Origin: Escherichia phage vB_Eco_ZCEC15 | DNA: 64,000 bases | Sequence record: PQ871103.1 | Reading direction: 5' to 3' (one strand) | Shown here: positions 3,202-49,815 of the stretch, piece after piece | Position numbering within the stretch: the stretch's first letter is position 1 | Layout of the letters: each line of letters begins with the position of its first letter | Position numbers and translations under genes: made by a program | Notes under the pieces: generated by a model | Database searches by the model: none | Told to the model about the DNA's origin: nothing | Seen by the model: the letters and a program-made list of their open reading frames with translations, nothing else

Positions 3202-4375
3202 TAAATTCTTCCATATCACTTAACTGATCTAGGTCAGTTTCTAAATCAGCTGCTGATTTACTTTTACTTTCTGGAGATTTAAATTTTTCAACCTTTGAGT
3301 TAATCAACTCATCAACTTCAGCTTCAACAATTTCATTACTATCAATAGCACCTAACTGATAAGCACGTTTAATAGCATCTCGGAATGGCTGATGCTTAAA
3401 TAAAGGACCCCAGAATGTAGTGCAGTTGGTATCTTTTGCACGCCAAGATTTTTCTTCTCGAATCATCTCGCCAGTTTCTTCGTCAAGAAATTCACGAGCA
3501 TACCAACCATTTTTAGGTTTTACCACAAATCCTAATTCAAGAGCCATATCTAACAATCCAGAATAAGGATCGATACCACCGTCAAATTTAACATCAATAA
3601 AGAATTTACTTTTTTCTTTAACGGTACGAGATTTTTCTACATTTAGAACAAATTGATACCCCTGAAGATCAGAACCATCTTTAATCTGGCGCTTACCGAT
3701 AATGAATACAGTATCAGCCGAATACATTACGCCTGTACCACCTGTCATCACGGTTTTACTGAACATTTCAATTGTTTCAATTGTATGGTTAACCGCAACG
3801 CATGGAATGTTTTTAATACTAAAATAAGGAGTAACAATACGGAATAATGACTTCAGTGATTTAGCACGAGTCATATCTGCCACAGATTTTTCATTCAAGG
3901 CATCTTCCGTTTCTTTCTTAGAAGCCATATTACCGATTGAGTCGATGAATACAATAACTTTTTCACCACGCTCAATAGCTTCAAGCTGATTCACCATATC
4001 AATTTTCAGCTGTTCAACTGACTGAATTGGTGTATGAATTACTCGTTCCGGGTCAACTCCCATGGATCGCAAATAAGCTGGAGTAATGCCAAATTCGCTA
4101 TCATAAAATAGACATACCGCGTCAGGATATTTGTTCAAATACGCCGCAACCATAGTCAAAGACATATTTGATTTAAAGTGTTTAGAAGGACCTGCAAAAA
4201 TGGTTAAACCAGACTGCATACCACCATCAATCGCACCAGAAATAGCAATATTAAGCATTGGGATTTTTGTACGGATTACATCCTTTTCATTAAAGAATTT
4301 AGATGTAGTCAGTTCAGCAGTCATTTTAGAAGTGGAAGCTTTAATCAAACGGGATTTTAAATCTGCAATAGACAT
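3194..4375 (-). CDS. uvsX: UvsX recombinase (RecA/Rad51 family), 393 aa
   Basis: Sequence closely resembles T4 UvsX but is not identical at N-terminus. Confidence 0.95.
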   Translation of the reverse strand: MSIADLKSRLIKASTSKMTAELTTSKFFNEKDVIRTKIPMLNIAISGAIDGGMQSGLTIFAGPSKHFKSNMSLTMVAAYLNKYPDAVCLFYDSEFGITPAYLRSMGVDPERVIHTPIQSVEQLKIDMVNQLEAIERGEKVIVFIDSIGNMASKKETEDALNEKSVADMTRAKSLKSLFRIVTPYFSIKNIPCVAVNHTIETIEMFSKTVMTGGTGVMYSADTVFIIGKRQIKDGSDLQGYQFVLNVEKSRTVKEKSKFFIDVKFDGGIDPYSGLLDMALELGFVVKPKNGWYAREFLDEETGEMIREEKSWRAKDTNCTTFWGPLFKHQPFRDAIKRAYQLGAIDSNEIVEAEVDELINSKVEKFKSPESKSKSAADLETDLDQLSDMEEFNE

Positions 4376-4452: not shown

Positions 4453-5295
4453 TTAATCAACTGCTATTGGATGAATAGCATTAAACTTATGAAATGCTTC
4501 TGATTTTTCTTTGCGCGAAACACACATGCGAAGAACCTTTAATGGCTCGTCTTCTTCACCCAACGATTTTCTCTTTTCAATATTCGATGTTTTCCAACGA
4601 GCTTGCTCTGGAAACTCTCTATTGATTTGCTCAAGAGCTCTATTATGTTTTGAATTACTACGAATTGAACTGCACCCGCCCGGAGCCTGTGCTTTTCCAG
4701 ATACAACCAGATATTTGAACAGGGCCAAATGCGGATAACCTTGATTAATTAAATTGAGAAATGCATACATATCTTCGCATAAATCAATTTTTCCATACCC
4801 AATTTGTTCTGTTGTAAGTTTTCCGAGGTCATACCATGTATTCGTGAATCCATATGAATTTTCACGATAATTACCCCAAGATGAAGTAATTTTAAAAATT
4901 GGTAAACGAGCATGACCATGATAATACCCGCAATCCATGGCATCTTCAACGTATTGAATCAATTCATAGAACTGTTCACGAGTTAACTGATTAATTTTAT
5001 CTACGCAGCGACGATCATCTTTCTTTCGCATTGAACTCATACGAATAGTAGTATCATCATCAATCATCCAAATTCGTTGACCTGCATACATATCAGTAAT
5101 TGCTTTACGAGTACCGGCAATTCCGTTTACATCATCAGGAATAGTTATAATTTTAGCTCTAGACCCATAGGCATCATAATAAGCTTTTTCTTCATGTTCA
5201 CGCACTACAATATGGGGTTCATAATCAGTCGGAAACATATCAAGGGCAGAAACTGCCCCGACACGCTGATAACTTGGAATTACGAATTGAATCAT
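4453..5295 (-). CDS. GT-A fold glycosyltransferase, 280 aa (candidate beta-glucosyl-HMC-alpha-glucosyltransferase of T2/T6 type)
   Basis: N-terminal VIPSYQRV and DxD motif IWMIDDD typical of GT-A enzymes; occupies the locus of T4 beta-gt but is unrelated in sequence. Confidence 0.6.
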   Translation of the reverse strand: MIQFVIPSYQRVGAVSALDMFPTDYEPHIVVREHEEKAYYDAYGSRAKIITIPDDVNGIAGTRKAITDMYAGQRIWMIDDDTTIRMSSMRKKDDRRCVDKINQLTREQFYELIQYVEDAMDCGYYHGHARLPIFKITSSWGNYRENSYGFTNTWYDLGKLTTEQIGYGKIDLCEDMYAFLNLINQGYPHLALFKYLVVSGKAQAPGGCSSIRSNSKHNRALEQINREFPEQARWKTSNIEKRKSLGEEDEPLKVLRMCVSRKEKSEAFHKFNAIHPIAVD

Positions 5296-5933
5296 TTAAG
5301 TGCCTTACATTTGTCAAAATGGTATCTTGTCATATTTGGCCCACGTCCTTTTAGTCCGCAATGCGGACATATTTTTTCTATCAAATTATGAGGTTTTCCT
5401 TTACGATTTTTAGACATCGTTTCTTTAATTATTTTAGCTTTTTCTGCGCCAAAAATTTCTTCATAAGTTTTACCAGAATTTTCCTTTGCTCGATTTATAA
5501 TTCCATATGCCTGCTCATTTTTACCATACATTGGATTACCTTCGCCTTTCATTCTTTTAGAATGATCAGGACGCTTGATTCCACGAAAGGCATTTCCGCA
5601 CTTATATCTTTCTTCTGGAGATAGTTTTTTACCGTACATTCCATTTAATTTGCCTGGAAAACTTCCTCCCCATGCTTCATTCTTTAAATTATATGAATCC
5701 GGACAATTAGCAGCATCTAAACAAGTTAAAATAATTTCTTCAACCTGTCTAAACATTGGTCCTTCATATAATATTTCTTTATTAAAGGATTTTATTCCAT
5801 ATTTCTTTTTAGCATGTTGCCAAACTACACCCGAACCATCATAATTTGGGTTGTGACCATCATGACTTCCTATATACCACTTTTTAGTTTTAGGATGTTT
5901 ATACTTATAAACATGTGGCACATTTACTTCCAT
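5292..5933 (-). CDS. GIY-YIG homing endonuclease (seg-like), 213 aa, C-terminal zinc finger
   Basis: VYKY...WYIGS GIY-YIG motif, NUMOD3-like G-K-x-S/P-E repeats, C-terminal CPHCG...RYHFDKC. Confidence 0.75.
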   Translation of the reverse strand: MEVNVPHVYKYKHPKTKKWYIGSHDGHNPNYDGSGVVWQHAKKKYGIKSFNKEILYEGPMFRQVEEIILTCLDAANCPDSYNLKNEAWGGSFPGKLNGMYGKKLSPEERYKCGNAFRGIKRPDHSKRMKGEGNPMYGKNEQAYGIINRAKENSGKTYEEIFGAEKAKIIKETMSKNRKGKPHNLIEKICPHCGLKGRGPNMTRYHFDKCKALK

Positions 5934-6817: not shown

Positions 6818-7069
6818 TCATTCCTTCTCTCTGATGATAATTACTTGATTTGGTTGTGCGGATTTTTTAGTTTCACCCGCAATTGACCAAATAAATGTAA
6901 TAAACCAACCAATAATTGACCAATTAAACAGTAAAGATGTGAAAAAGATTCCTACTGTCGATTTTGACCCGCGCATCAAGGCGATGAACCATGGAAGCAT
7001 GTATATAATAATAGCCAACACGCCTGAAACTAAAACCATAAAAATTGAACCTGCTACTAAAGTTTCCAT
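6818..7069 (-). CDS. imm: Imm superinfection immunity membrane protein, 83 aa
   Basis: Two hydrophobic helices, 83 aa, position downstream of 43. Confidence 0.8.
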   Translation of the reverse strand: METLVAGSIFMVLVSGVLAIIIYMLPWFIALMRGSKSTVGIFFTSLLFNWSIIGWFITFIWSIAGETKKSAQPNQVIIIREKE

Positions 7070-46927: not shown

Positions 46928-47383
46928 TTAAAAGAGGCTGTTCATTATTCGGTAAAGTGAAGGGCCCATCACATATTGCCACTGAGTACGAGGAATAAGA
47001 GCAAAAGCATCCATCTCTGGAATCATAACGCCATCTTTATTTTCAAAATAAGACTCGCAATGGCAATTTCTAAACATCTCATGCTCTACTGGAATCGTAT
47101 AATAAAATAACTGTAAGTCTTTATTACTAGAATATTTAAATACACCTAAGTCTTCTAGAAGGTCTGGATTATAATTGCTAAAGCCAGTCTCTTCTAAGCA
47201 TTCTCTTCGTGCTGCATCTAGTGCGCTTAAATCAGAACTTTCTACACGCCCCTTTGGAATATCCCAGCGATGTGCCATCATTCCATGTTTACGAGAACCA
47301 GTAACTCGTCCCATAAATAAATCTTTATCTTCTGTCATAAAGATAATACCAGCTGATAGTGTTTTCATTTTAATTTCCTGCAT
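46928..47383 (-). CDS. nudE: NudE Nudix hydrolase, 151 aa
   Basis: Nudix box GRVESSDLSALDAARRECLEETGF. Confidence 0.9.
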   Translation of the reverse strand: MQEIKMKTLSAGIIFMTEDKDLFMGRVTGSRKHGMMAHRWDIPKGRVESSDLSALDAARRECLEETGFSNYNPDLLEDLGVFKYSSNKDLQLFYYTIPVEHEMFRNCHCESYFENKDGVMIPEMDAFALIPRTQWQYVMGPSLYRIMNSLF

Positions 47384-47853
47384 TCAGTGATAAAATTATT
47401 TAAATTTTGAGCATATTTCTTTTCATCAAAAATCTTTTGTTGTCTGCGCATCCGCCATGGCATTTCAATGAACATGTACCATATTCCTGATAATATTGAT
47501 GCTGTAAAAATATTAACAAGTATGGTTAAAAGAATCCAATCTCCTATTCTGTCCATTGGATTTTTTATAAAAAAGTAAAATACGAATGATGACACAGGAA
47601 GACTAATGATATACCACAGAATCATAATCTTATCTGTGAACCATTCAGCATTCGTTAACTTAGCACGACCATTATGAATACACACGAATTTATCATCTGT
47701 TACAGTAGATGGCTTAACTGCTTGATATCCCATTCTAAACTCCCTAATTAATCGTTTCTTTGTATCTTCAGAACAGCCGCTCCAGTCAACTCTATCAACT
47801 GAAATGCCATCGTCCCCATCATCTAAATCATACCAGTGAGTTTTTAAAATCAT
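47365..47853 (-). CDS. membrane protein, 162 aa, C-terminal CRKLK (e.2 position)
   Basis: Hydrophobic helices; C-terminal motif shared with next three ORFs. Confidence 0.6.
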   Translation of the reverse strand: MILKTHWYDLDDGDDGISVDRVDWSGCSEDTKKRLIREFRMGYQAVKPSTVTDDKFVCIHNGRAKLTNAEWFTDKIMILWYIISLPVSSFVFYFFIKNPMDRIGDWILLTILVNIFTASILSGIWYMFIEMPWRMRRQQKIFDEKKYAQNLNNFITECRKLK

Positions 47854-48224
47854 TTAATTTTCCTACAATCACTCACAAACTCTTCCATTGATTCTTTTTC
47901 AATATAAGACATATAGCTATTATATTCCTTTAATTGTATTTTGTAATCCTTTTTTCTTTGCCAATTTATTTTAAAATTATCATAATGAAAATATAACACG
48001 GTACCAAAGAATGAAAATAATGAAATTGCTATAGTATAATGAAGTTCACTCCAAACTTCTATTATATCTACTATACCGCTGACGTTACTGCGGATGTTTA
48101 AAATAAAACAGTCAATTAACAATCCAATAAAACTACCCGCAAGAGCTGCAGCCAATGCCACAGCAAAAATTGAAAATGACTCAGAAAAAGAATATTTGAC
48201 TTTATTTAGTTTTGGCTTTTGCAT
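47850..48224 (-). CDS. membrane protein, 124 aa, C-terminal CRKIK (e.3 position)
   Basis: As above. Confidence 0.6.
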   Translation of the reverse strand: MQKPKLNKVKYSFSESFSIFAVALAAALAGSFIGLLIDCFILNIRSNVSGIVDIIEVWSELHYTIAISLFSFFGTVLYFHYDNFKINWQRKKDYKIQLKEYNSYMSYIEKESMEEFVSDCRKIK

Positions 48225-48619
48225 CGTGATTCCTTAACAAATTTCATAATTTCATCAAATTCATACATATCTAGCTTAAGCTGGTGTTCCTTTTTAATCT
48301 TTTTACACTGAGCTTTCCAATCACGTACGCGTTTACGATAATGCCTTCCTTGATACCAGTATCCTACCCAATTTACGGGTACTAATAAAAGTGGAACTAT
48401 TAATGGAAGAATTAGCATTAACACAAGTATTTCGCCAGAATCAATATCAGTCATAACATCTAAAACACCTCCAATAATCAATAGAATTACAAATGATATG
48501 AGTATAACAGGACCTATTAACACATCAGTAGAAATTATCTGACGCTTTGGTTCATACTTCAACGGTTTACTTGGAAGGTATAGTGATGGCTTTGACATAT
48601 TCTCTACATTCCTTAACAA
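48206..48619 (-). CDS. membrane protein, 137 aa, C-terminal CKKIKK and CKSQN (e.4 position)
   Basis: As above. Confidence 0.6.
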   Translation of the reverse strand: MLRNVENMSKPSLYLPSKPLKYEPKRQIISTDVLIGPVILISFVILLIIGGVLDVMTDIDSGEILVLMLILPLIVPLLLVPVNWVGYWYQGRHYRKRVRDWKAQCKKIKKEHQLKLDMYEFDEIMKFVKESRCKSQN

Positions 48620-49181
48620 ATTTTTCTAATAATAAATCGCTTTCAAAATTGGGATTTTCTACGAATTTATCAAAAAGATCATCAACAATAGTTAAGATAT
48701 TCTTTTTACTAAGAATACGCTTATTTTCATATTTTGTTTCAGAGTCAACTATAAGAGTAAAGAAATATTTCTTTCCCTGAAATTTTACCGTAGTATCAAT
48801 ATAAAATAAATTTGATTTTTGTAAATTACGTTTAAACCATGCATCACTTAAACTATAAACGCCAAGATAATCATAATCGTCGTTTAAATAACAAACCGTC
48901 CATTCAGGAGAAATGAAATCAGTAAATTCAACATCAAAATCACACGTCAATGAATGAATTGATTCAATACTGTTAATAAGTATTCCAGGACGTATTAAAG
49001 ACTTTTTACCTCTAGAAAATCTTCCGGAAAGACTTTCATCAGTTTCATATGAAGACCCCCAATAGTAATTACGTCCTTCTGCCATACGTTTAAGAGCATT
49101 TAGTAATTGGTCTGGAACATCAACCTGTCTTTGGAACTCTTCAAACATTGAATTGAAATCACTTTGCATTTTCATTTTCAT
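48567..49181 (-). CDS. hypothetical protein, 204 aa, C-terminal KECREYVK (e.5 position)
   Basis: ORF track. Confidence 0.6.
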   Translation of the reverse strand: MKMKMQSDFNSMFEEFQRQVDVPDQLLNALKRMAEGRNYYWGSSYETDESLSGRFSRGKKSLIRPGILINSIESIHSLTCDFDVEFTDFISPEWTVCYLNDDYDYLGVYSLSDAWFKRNLQKSNLFYIDTTVKFQGKKYFFTLIVDSETKYENKRILSKKNILTIVDDLFDKFVENPNFESDLLLEKFVKECREYVKAITIPSK

Positions 49182-49200
49182 TCCTATTTACTCCAAGTAT

Positions 49201-49218
49201 AAGGGGCCGAAGCCCCTT
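49201..49218 (-). repeat. UUCG-tetraloop hairpin (aaggggccgaagcccctt)
   Basis: Same hairpin as at 10645. Confidence 0.5.
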
Positions 49219-49222
49219 ATCA

Positions 49223-49815
49223 TTATTTCAGAGAATTAATGTATTCCTGAACATCGGCAGAGGTAGTTTCAACCCCAGAAATATTACCATTAAAGGTTTC
49301 AACTCGAGCAAGGGTATCTTCAATATCAACCTTAGTCAGTGCTGCAATTTCAACTACATCATCTGCAGCACTAATTCCAAGGGCATTTGCCGCACGAGTT
49401 TCACGGATATATTCCAATTTAACTGCAAGCTCTTGACGAGCATCATCTAACTCAACTACTTTCTTGGCGATTTCAATTCGCATTTCAGCATAACCGTCAG
49501 CCTTAGTAGTCAACTGCTCAGCTGTTCGACGATATAGTAAACCAAGTTTAGCATGCATTGTTACATCTTGACCTTCGGAAAGAAGTTTACGAATTTCACG
49601 CTCTTTTGATTCAGCCTGTCGATTCTTTTCGACAATAAGTTCACGAATACGTTTTTCTTCATTAATAGATTTAACAGAAGCAGTTTTAGATCTTTAATTT
49701 TATCAAGTAGTTTTGCTGCCGCAGCAGTATACTGTTCTTCAACAGATAAATTTTTAGCCATAGCAGAACCAAGTTTAGTGCGAATAAACTCAACAATTTT
49801 CTTCAGTGTGTTCAT
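49223..49815 (-). pseudogene. gene split by a 1-nt frameshift in a T4 (plus) / A4 (minus) run near 49684-49687; joined product about 196 aa
   Basis: Upstream ORF turns into low-complexity out-of-frame sequence after DKIKDLK; the frame of the downstream ORF is open and protein-like for about 40 codons before its ATG. Confidence 0.45.

Follow-up and report, generated by a model that had tools for sequence, protein, structure and literature searches.

A rare C-terminal motif shared by four tandem early proteins of a T4-like phage, and its overlap with start signals and DNA repeats

Gene content of the e.5-nudE region

This study concerns a chain of tightly packed genes, e.5, e.4, e.3, e.2 and nudE, in a stretch of 64,000 nucleotides (nt) from Escherichia phage vB_Eco_ZCEC15 (PQ871103.1; the whole stretch analysed is called the window), and in particular a short motif, F-[IV]-x-x-C-R, near the C-termini of the proteins encoded by the first four genes. 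The window is that of a Tequatrovirus: it is T4-like, has a GC content of about 0.35 and carries nearly all genes on the minus strand. By megablast the 1.8-kb region is 90-98% identical to sequences in 504 phage records, nearly all of them from Tequatrovirus. In T4 and annotated relatives the open reading frames (ORFs) are named e.5, e.4, e.3 and e.2, followed by nudE, lysozyme e and denV. The e.2 to e.5 products are expressed early T4 proteins, and they are carried by hundreds of therapeutic and model T-even phages. In T4 the RNAs of all four genes are early, and all four proteins have been seen by mass spectrometry (PMC9697503 supplement).

An earlier note on this DNA had described four consecutive proteins of 162, 124, 137 and 204 amino acids (aa) in 47365-49181. 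Their ORFs were recovered there, all on the minus strand, at 47365-47853, 47850-48224, 48206-48619 (137 aa from a TTG codon) and 48567-49181. PHROG profiles confirm all four ORFs with E values of 1e-60 to 3e-110. With a shorter e.4, the genes of the chain are as follows (tails are given up to the stop codon).

48567-49181, minus strand: e.5 orthologue (204 aa), soluble, tail ...LLLEKFVKECREYVKAITIPSK; PHROG 2607, E 3.4e-110; no transmembrane segment
48206-48598, minus strand: e.4 orthologue (130 aa), tail ...EIMKFVKESRCKSQN; PHROG 2604, E 1.3e-70
47850-48224, minus strand: e.3 orthologue (124 aa), tail ...ESMEEFVSDCRKIK; PHROG 2330, E 1.2e-60
47365-47853, minus strand: e.2 orthologue, intact (162 aa), tail ...NLNNFITECRKLK; PHROG 2203, E 2.4e-77, residues 1-160
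46928-47368, minus strand: nudE (NUDIX hydrolase), last cistron of the chain; its ATG at 47368-47366 overlaps the e.2 stop codon as ATGA

The start of e.4 is most likely the ATG at 48598, which gives 130 aa as in T4 and T2. Initiation at the TTG at 48619, as in the mechanically called ORF, was rejected because the M-S-K-P start is conserved in RB69 and because the equivalent TTG at the e.4/e.3 junction is out of frame. The true C-terminus of e.4 is ...MKFVKESRCKSQN (FVKESRCKSQN).

Comparison with T4 e.2 to e.5 (UniProt P32273, P32274, P39222, P39223) established orthology for all four ORFs, with 77-100% protein identity and the same order and strand between e.6 and nudE. A difference is seen in e.2, which is whole here and a frameshifted, truncated form of 102 aa in the T4 reference. 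The family-profile matches of e.2, e.3, e.4 and e.5 are full-length and each significant, and the synteny of e.2 to e.4 is also that of their families. By tblastn, e.3, which lies between e.4 and e.2, is 80-99% identical to Tequatrovirus sequences and 37% to RB69 e.3, and e.4, between e.5 and e.3, is 80-99% identical to Tequatrovirus and 52-54% to Mosigvirus sequences. The position of e.2 directly upstream of NUDIX or lysozyme genes is likewise found in T4, VR5, VR7 and three further loci (L067, L069, L071), sometimes with a 78-aa ORF in between. The e.5 gene is the first cistron 3' of the hairpin that follows e.6. A wider search for related loci yielded five in viral contigs, and metagenomes gave close relatives only.

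The ORFs and their families are already known but uncharacterised, and none of the four families carries a functional assignment. Precomputed assignments place PF26876 on e.5 homologues and PF26896 (Phage_T4_Y06M) on e.2 homologues at 99% identity. None of the four proteins had a significant match in Pfam (2025 copy), NCBIfam, PADLOC or the PDB sequences. Some GenBank records (e.g. OQ446694, OR125554, MW749001) label e.3 and e.4 as 'sulfurtransferase' and e.5 as 'phosphoserine phosphatase' or 'site-specific RNA endonuclease'; the Pfam, NCBIfam and PDB searches lend these labels no support.

A motif common to the four protein tails

The earlier note had proposed that the four proteins share a conserved basic tail of the Cys-Arg/Lys-Lys type. 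A shared motif is indeed present, but its composition is different: the element common to all four tails is F-[IV]-x-[ED]-[C/S]-R, with F-[IV]-x-x-C-R as the core, and the basic residues mostly belong to the start signals of the next gene, as described below. The positions of the motif codons, together with an internal basic stretch of e.4, are the following.

48603-48620, minus strand: e.5 motif, F188 V K E C R193 (TTT GTT AAG GAA TGT AGA)
48224-48241, minus strand: e.4 motif, F120 V K E S R125 (TTT GTT AAG GAA TCA CGA)
47862-47879, minus strand: e.3 motif, F116 V S D C R121 (TTT GTG AGT GAT TGT AGG)
47377-47394, minus strand: e.2 motif, F154 I T E C R159 (TTT ATC ACT GAA TGC AGG)
48290-48307, minus strand: C98-K-K-I-K-K103 of e.4, a juxtamembrane basic stretch, not C-terminal; QCAKAQ in RB69

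The tails CRKLK and CRKIK were found as described, the 162-aa protein ending in FITECRKLK and the 124-aa protein in FVSDCRKIK. The stretch KECREYVK does lie near the end of the 204-aa protein, but seven more residues follow it. The proposed tail CKKIKK of the third protein must be given up: it lies within the chain, at residues 98-103 of 130 and thus 27 residues short of the end, QCAKAQ takes its place in RB69, and profile alignment shows it to be non-homologous to the other tails.

The motif is very rare. Translation of the window in six frames (about 128,000 codons) contains F[IV]x[DE]CR three times, each time in one of these tails. In the complete 166,650-bp genome of a relative (OZ035756.1), F[IV]xxC[RK] at most 22 aa from the end of an ORF is found in e.5, e.3 and e.2 only. 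A Cys followed by Arg or Lys within the last ten residues occurs in five of the 116 minus-strand genes, and three of these five are e.2 to e.4. The tails at the 38 other overlapping gene junctions of the window are unrelated (e.g. KGA, KVL, DEE, KGE, EKY). A DNA-level scan of IMG/VR (2.9 M viral contigs) for F[IV]xECRK followed by a stop codon gave mostly chance matches outside ORFs; the real ORFs were T-even e.2 and e.3 only.

These counts bear on whether the tails could be alike simply because they are the ends of Lys-rich, A+T-rich genes. The genome is A+T rich, Lys makes up 8.9% of residues, and one unrelated gene in the window also ends in FDKCKALK. Such a compositional origin is nevertheless most improbable and is refuted by the motif count with all matches in adjacent gene tails, by the uniqueness of the motif in the genome and by its retention in homologues at 28-37% identity, as tabulated below for 18 lineage representatives. 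The shared tail motif is far beyond chance. A published description of it was not found in a limited literature search, which was swamped by unrelated uses of 'e.2' and 'e.3'.

The unrelated gene is a 213-aa ORF at 5292-5933 on the minus strand, beside gene 42, which ends in YHFDKCKALK and overlaps the next gene as ATGA. Its TGTAAGG combines a Cys codon with a Shine-Dalgarno sequence; the tail resembles those of e.2 and e.3 but is without F[IV]xxCR.

Overlap of the tails with translation start signals

The coding sequences overlap at all four junctions, by 32 nt at e.5/e.4, by 19 nt at e.4/e.3 and as ATGA at e.3/e.2 and e.2/nudE. Translationally coupled cistrons that overlap as ATGA or TAATG, with the Shine-Dalgarno sequence inside the upstream gene, are common in T4, and the overlaps of the e.5-nudE chain are of this type. 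The difference is that ordinary junctions impose no common peptide, whereas here an additional F-[IV]-x-x-C-R lies upstream of, or interleaved with, the start signals.

The last codons of both e.3 and e.2 are TGY AGG AAA WTW AAA TGA, which contain a Shine-Dalgarno sequence (AGGAAA), a spacer and the next ATG. The AGG-AAA codons of the e.3 tail are the Shine-Dalgarno sequence of e.2, those of the e.2 tail are that of nudE, and in both cases AGGAAA stands 5-7 nt upstream of the start. The R-K-[IL]-K ending of e.3 and e.2 thus results for the most part from reading a start region as protein. In the tails of e.5 and e.4 the best Shine-Dalgarno match is formed by the K-E codons (AAG GAA), and the residues after R are dictated by the start of the next gene, ATG-xAA-AAG-CC (M-x-K-P). 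Cys126 of e.4, which directly follows the motif (RCKSQN), has a codon that the start of e.3 creates (CG-ATG-C). The endings beyond the motif, K-[IL]-K for e.3 and e.2, C-K-S-Q-N for e.4 and E-Y-V-K-A... for e.5, arise as by-products from start signals and do not belong to it. The locus shows how a motif reading can mislead, since part of the 'basic Cys-Arg-Lys-Lys tail' is a ribosome-binding site read as protein.

It could be argued that the whole likeness arises in this way, with in-frame AGGAAA, AAGGAA, spacer and ATGA being read as R-K, K-E and [IL]-K, and that the peptide is functionless. The exact correspondence of AGG AAA WTW AAA TGA with Shine-Dalgarno, spacer and ATGA fits this explanation, as do the use of AAG GAA and the M-x-K-P constraint in e.5 and e.4. 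Synonymous diversity is also reduced in the tails, to zero in that of e.4, and at three of the four junctions the RNA is less structured than shuffled controls, as open start regions would be. However, no Shine-Dalgarno sequence or start signal accounts for the F, I/V and C residues, and at the 38 other gene overlaps in the window the tails are quite unlike these. Further evidence on this point comes from distant homologues.

The junction RNAs fold no better than shuffled controls (z -1.6 to +1.3), and a common RNA structure was therefore rejected. The element AAAUUUGUUAAGGAAUGUA may resemble the RegA consensus obtained by systematic evolution of ligands by exponential enrichment, a likeness that is not relied on here.

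Conservation of the peptide in distant relatives

In RB69, e.3 (37% identity) ends in NFIKECRK with AGA as the Arg codon, and the next gene is the unrelated ORF139c. RB69 e.5 ends in FIMECREYVK and RB69 e.4 in FVKEIRCKS. The e.2 proteins of Dhakavirus and Gaprivervirus (30-44% identity) end in FI[EK]ECRK with Arg encoded by CGT; the Shine-Dalgarno sequence is shifted into the GAG/AAG-GAA codons, and an acidic ORF of 78 aa comes next. Six more e.2 clusters at 28-36% identity came from an exhaustive search of 1.84 billion representatives, and all of them retain F-I-x-x-C-R, with the tails FIKECRK, FIEECRK, FIKMCRNS, FIKGCRK, FITECRNLR and FIKGCRNGHN.

A further relative is a contig of 1926 nt from a distant T4-like phage (Logan SRR8048112, here L069). 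It encodes, directly before a NUDIX gene, four tandem two-helix proteins that all carry the motif, with the tails, in order, NNFVKECRGQ, LQFIREVRNAKTR, SKFIDDCKNWR and DNFIKMCRNS; its first position is occupied by a membrane protein and not by a soluble one like e.5. The fourth protein (#4) is the e.2 homologue and ends in FIKMCRNS, its motif lying 16-33 nt upstream of the NUDIX start. The Shine-Dalgarno sequence TAGGAAAAATG comes after the motif and spans the stop codon, and the NUDIX start follows 8 nt further.

Across 18 lineage representatives, F and I/V are present in all (18/18 each), R in 17/18 and C in 15/18, and position -3 relative to F is hydrophobic in 14/18 and otherwise A or T. 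The three cases without Cys belong to the e.4 lineage and have S, I or V. Cys is invariant in e.2 (nine representatives), e.3 (three), e.5 (two) and the first L069 protein. Because the F/IV/C/R core is kept at 28-37% identity, with changed codons (AGG/AGA/CGT/CGA) and changed neighbours, it is, as judged from these comparisons, selected as a peptide at the amino-acid level.

These observations make it unlikely that the tails are nothing but translated start regions. The Arg codon varies (AGG, AGA, CGT, CGA), with other codons taking over the Shine-Dalgarno sequence, and in L069 #4 the motif stands upstream of and outside the start region and still reads F-I-K-M-C-R. In Dhakavirus-type loci, moreover, the junction upstream of e.2 yields a quite different tail, ...PMEGW.

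RB69 holds another set of small tandem ORFs with similar ends to one another. ORF138c, 137c and 136c (3562-4152 in RB69, L002; also L012 2828-3622) all end in W-V-[SA]-S-S-x-x-x-C; they form a different family with a C-terminal Cys and occupy the position that e.2 and nudE have in Tequatrovirus.

DNA repeats and recombination

The likeness of the tails extends to the DNA, and the junctions fall into two pairs.

48608-48623, minus strand: exact 16-nt repeat AAATTTGTTAAGGAAT, copy 1, in the e.5 tail upstream of the e.4 start
48229-48244, minus strand: exact 16-nt repeat AAATTTGTTAAGGAAT, copy 2, in the e.4 tail upstream of the e.3 start
47851-47870, minus strand: 20-nt junction repeat GATTGTAGGAAAATTAAATG, containing e.3 tail, Shine-Dalgarno sequence and e.2 ATG; left end of the e.2 cassette
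47366-47385, minus strand: 20-nt junction repeat GAATGCAGGAAATTAAAATG, containing e.2 tail, Shine-Dalgarno sequence and nudE ATG; right end of the e.2 cassette

The 16-mer and the 20-nt near-repeat are each unique to these junctions in the window. At e.5/e.4 and e.4/e.3 the shared 16-mer upstream is followed downstream by ATGxxAAAGCCAxxACTA.

The repeats have evidently been used. T2 and one further contig (L011) are without e.2, which is missing exactly between the two 20-mers, leaving a hybrid junction with a 22-nt overlap. UFV05 and UFV11 carry an in-frame e.4::e.2 chimera in which e.3 is deleted, formed at a 7-nt microhomology in the first transmembrane helix (TM1). Homopolymer frameshifts have truncated e.2 in T4 and e.3 in several phages, and have fused e.5 to e.4 in one. 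Because of these natural deletions, chimeras and frameshifts, the genes can be regarded as accessories that are dispensable in the laboratory, and the repeats as active recombination substrates.

The details of two of these rearrangements are as follows. In UFV11 (L066 1501-1821) the chimera is e.4(1-31)::e.2(89-162), joined at TCCTGTG. In Shigella phage vB_SsoM_113 (L001 3001-3975) the e.5-e.4 fusion results from the loss of one A from GAAAAATTT.

A comparable arrangement is known from the promoter-early stem-loop (PeSL) cassettes of T4-type phages (Arbiol et al. 2010, PMC2839356; Comeau et al. 2014, PMC4122927). These are also short conserved gene-boundary sequences of hyperplastic regions that include a Shine-Dalgarno sequence and start codon at the 3' end, and recombination between flanking copies removes or inserts an accessory gene, as with the e.2 cassette in T2-type phages. 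The present repeats differ in lying inside tail codons of the upstream protein, where they are conserved as peptide too, and in having neither a sigma-70 promoter nor a stem-loop. None of the promoter-like matches coincides with a junction repeat (24 consensus hits in the region vs 19 expected).

One might hence suppose that the DNA repeat and not the peptide is what matters, with PeSL-like cassettes shuffling accessory genes and gene conversion keeping the tails alike. The exact 16-nt repeat and the 20-nt near-repeat at paired junctions, the precise absence of e.2 in T2-type genomes and the documented PeSL-mediated excision between flanking regulatory cassettes in T4-type phages (PMC2839356) agree with such a role, as does the occurrence of e.3 in about 50 more phage records than e.2 (at least 60% identity; records not individually checked). 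Against it, two junctions in RB69 differ in DNA and retain the peptides, and the distant e.2 homologues keep F-I-x-x-C-R as single copies with other codons and no partner repeat. The junctions also do not have the promoter and stem-loop that define PeSL cassettes, and the UFV11 chimera used a different 7-nt microhomology, so any short homology suffices. We consider a purely DNA-based origin of the likeness improbable.

Probable common descent of the tail module

The tails had been thought to sit on different, independent membrane anchors. This does not hold, since about 40 post-membrane residues align between e.3 and e.4 and between e.3 and e.2. With hhalign, 37 post-membrane columns align for e.3 vs e.4 (69%, E 4e-5) and 37 for e.2 vs e.3 (66%, E 6e-5); the hairpins do not align. 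In L069, proteins #2 and #3, which are at the positions of e.4 and e.3, are clear paralogues (34% identity, BLASTP 4e-19), and #3 matches the e.3 profile (hhalign 95.5%). In view of the post-membrane alignments and the L069 paralogues, the tails are probably alike by descent. Common descent of the tail module is likely also because of the shared e.5/e.4 and e.4/e.3 junctions, a pattern as left by tandem duplication of a unit that starts inside the tail of the preceding gene.

Predicted topology, structure models and selection

The earlier note described the first three proteins as polytopic membrane proteins, and the T4 annotation labels e.2 to e.4 'predicted membrane protein'. Hydropathy supports two helices in each of e.2, e.3 and e.4, but the second helix of e.3 is borderline. 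In e.2 a cytoplasmic N-domain would be followed by helices at residues 78-96 and 106-129 and then the tail; the helices of e.4 are at about residues 31-49 and 57-75, and those of e.3 at about 19-37 (TM1) and 61-79 (TM2, KD19 1.49). Both e.2 and e.4 have a basic N-terminus, two helices and a C-terminal segment with a net charge of +5 to +8, and e.3 has the same hairpin layout with its weaker second helix. Because of the basic N-terminus, the two helices and the strongly basic C-terminal segment, an N-in/C-in topology is predicted for all three. The e.5 protein has no hydrophobic segment (maximum KD19 0.87).

The motif positions -3, 0, +1 and +4 would fall on one face of a helix, which would be hydrophobic, with a hydrophobic moment of 0.59-0.71. 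AlphaFold models of e.5 and e.2 both place a helix at the motif, with low confidence. A Foldseek comparison of the e.5 model with the PDB returned small alarmone synthetases as the best hit (E 0.009, TM-score 0.16), which was disregarded as there was no credible match. The e.2 family has a conserved N-domain, predicted to be cytoplasmic, of the form W-x-x-[LI]-D-D-G-x-x-G ... V-[DG]-W-x-x-C, with a second invariant Cys and no family or structural match.

Selection was examined with the ratio of nonsynonymous to synonymous diversity (pN/pS) in eight Tequatrovirus genomes, using uncorrected Nei-Gojobori counts. The ratio is 0-0.15 in post-membrane segments and tails, except for 0.40 in the e.3 tail, and 0.5-0.7 in the transmembrane hairpins. 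The synonymous component, pS, is lowered in the tails, as expected because of the overlapping start signals.

The hairpins of e.3 (47988-48170) and e.4 (48374-48508) are also the most variable segments of e.5-nudE among Tequatrovirus, with 10-12 variable sites per 30 nt, and the e.3 loop has a 4-aa indel; the junctions and tails are nearly invariant. This suggests that the membrane and periplasmic parts of e.3 and e.4 are under diversifying or relaxed selection.

The conserved Cys could be chemically active, as a metal ligand, a redox or disulfide residue or a lipidation site, and a lipidation or metal site had in fact been put forward for these tails. It is invariant in the e.2, e.3 and e.5 lineages and in L069 #1, which is unusual where hydrophobicity alone is needed, the e.2 N-domain supplies another invariant Cys, and the motif Cys would lie on the hydrophobic face, where a helix bundle would juxtapose thiols. 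Lipidation finds no support in view of the lack of an N-terminal lipobox or CaaX geometry, the distance from Cys to the end ranging from 3 (CRK) through 5 (CRKLK) to 13 residues (e.5), and of the predicted cytoplasmic location, which also disfavours disulfides. A universal metal site is argued against by the single Cys per motif, by its replacement in the e.4 lineage by S, I or V, of which I and V suit packing, and by the lack of a metal-binding family match in Pfam, NCBIfam and PDB. A chemically active Cys common to the tails is thus quite unlikely; the strict invariance outside the e.4 lineage may leave room for a thiol-specific role.

A possible role of the predicted tail helix

In view of the above, we find it reasonably likely that the motif is part of an inherited helix on the cytoplasmic side, which serves in docking or oligomerisation and is borne by accessory proteins whose translation is coupled. 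In this model e.2, e.3 and e.4 would be small hairpins in the inner membrane with both termini in the cytoplasm, and all four proteins would end in a cytoplasmic amphipathic helix of the form hydrophobic(-3)-x-x-F(0)-[IV](+1)-x-[ED]-C(+4)-R(+5), in which F, I/V, C and the residue at -3 share a single face. The helix could act as a docking or oligomerisation module, passed on by tandem duplication or junction copying and held by selection at the amino-acid level. It would gather the co-translated products of the e.5-e.4-e.3-e.2-nudE chain or tether them to one partner in the cytoplasm or at the membrane face. The same DNA, as the start region of the next cistron, would also couple translation along the chain, and the near-identical tail-coding repeats would serve as recombination substrates by which whole cassettes are deleted or inserted. 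One stretch of DNA would thus be under three constraints, as peptide, as downstream translation start and as recombination substrate.

Short C-terminal helices with a hydrophobic face and basic flanks on the cytoplasmic side are found in the membrane-targeting sequences of MinD and FtsA and in the C-terminal peptide of FtsZ. The tails described here would share with them a single hydrophobic helical face, basic residues and the cytoplasmic side. The analogy is mechanistic only: there is no sequence relation, three of the four proteins here are already membrane-anchored by prediction, and an invariant Cys and Arg are not known as features of those motifs. Another comparison is with T4 Imm and Sp, small early inner-membrane proteins of superinfection exclusion that are non-essential in the laboratory. 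The e.2 to e.4 products are likewise small, early and laboratory-dispensable T-even proteins of, by prediction, the inner membrane, and their fast-evolving membrane and periplasmic parts would suit an arms-race role. They differ from Imm and Sp in showing no sequence similarity, and the Imm candidate in the window (6818-7069) is without such a tail.

Several observations weigh against a docking helix of common origin. With pLDDT (predicted local distance difference test) values of 60 for the AlphaFold2 model of e.5 and 50 for that of e.2, helicity and packing are only suggestive. The independent lineages of e.3, e.4 and e.5 are few, these genes being found only in Tequatrovirus, Mosigvirus and one metagenomic contig. 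Nearly every lineage has the motif within about 30 nt of the next start codon, so constraint on nucleotides and on peptide is not fully separable, with L069 #4 as the single counter-example. Regarding descent, e.2 vs e.4 gave an hhalign value of 0.6% and a broadened e.3 profile vs e.4 gave 17%, and the similarity of e.5 to the others is confined to 7-13 motif residues; whole-protein paralogy of Tequatrovirus e.2, e.3 and e.4 is plausible but unproven, and similarity outside the tails may have been erased or may never have been there. Phages also persist without e.2 (T2), with a frameshifted e.2 (T4) or e.3, or with an e.4::e.2 chimera that lacks e.3. A common interaction partner, as the earlier note had proposed, would fit the conservation of the motif in distant homologues, which agrees with a function in binding or assembly. 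The analysis identified no partner, and the proteins are not known to form oligomers or to have a phenotype.

A bolder and rather doubtful extension is that products of the chain (e.5 with the hairpins, or e.2 homo-oligomers in phages where e.2 is the only one of these genes) form a bundle at the inner membrane, held together on its cytoplasmic face by the F-[IV]-x-x-C-R helices, with the invariant Cys residues forming a thiol layer for metal binding or redox chemistry, or with the helix acting as a short linear motif that hijacks one specific host factor. If so, this would be a previously unrecognised membrane complex of T-even phages, and its membrane and periplasmic parts, which evolve fast, would be engaged in an arms race, e.g. 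in exclusion or counter-defence. The locus has no bearing on any major open question and its genes are dispensable in the laboratory. Yet a six-residue motif that is unique in the genome, occurs in four adjacent proteins and is invariant down to 28% identity provides a concrete experimental handle on proteins that offer no other.

Features upstream of e.5

A GGGGC-UUCG-GCCCC tetraloop hairpin lies at 49199-49220, between the e.6 stop codon and the e.5 start. It scores as terminator-like on the plus strand too, and the densely packed e.5-nudE chain begins there. The e.6 gene itself (49223-49815, minus strand) is split into ORFs of 84 aa and 111 aa by the loss of one A from an A-run near 49687, whereas e.6 is a single 197-aa ORF in L008, T4 and RB69. 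The split gene is either a real pseudogene or the result of a homopolymer sequencing error.

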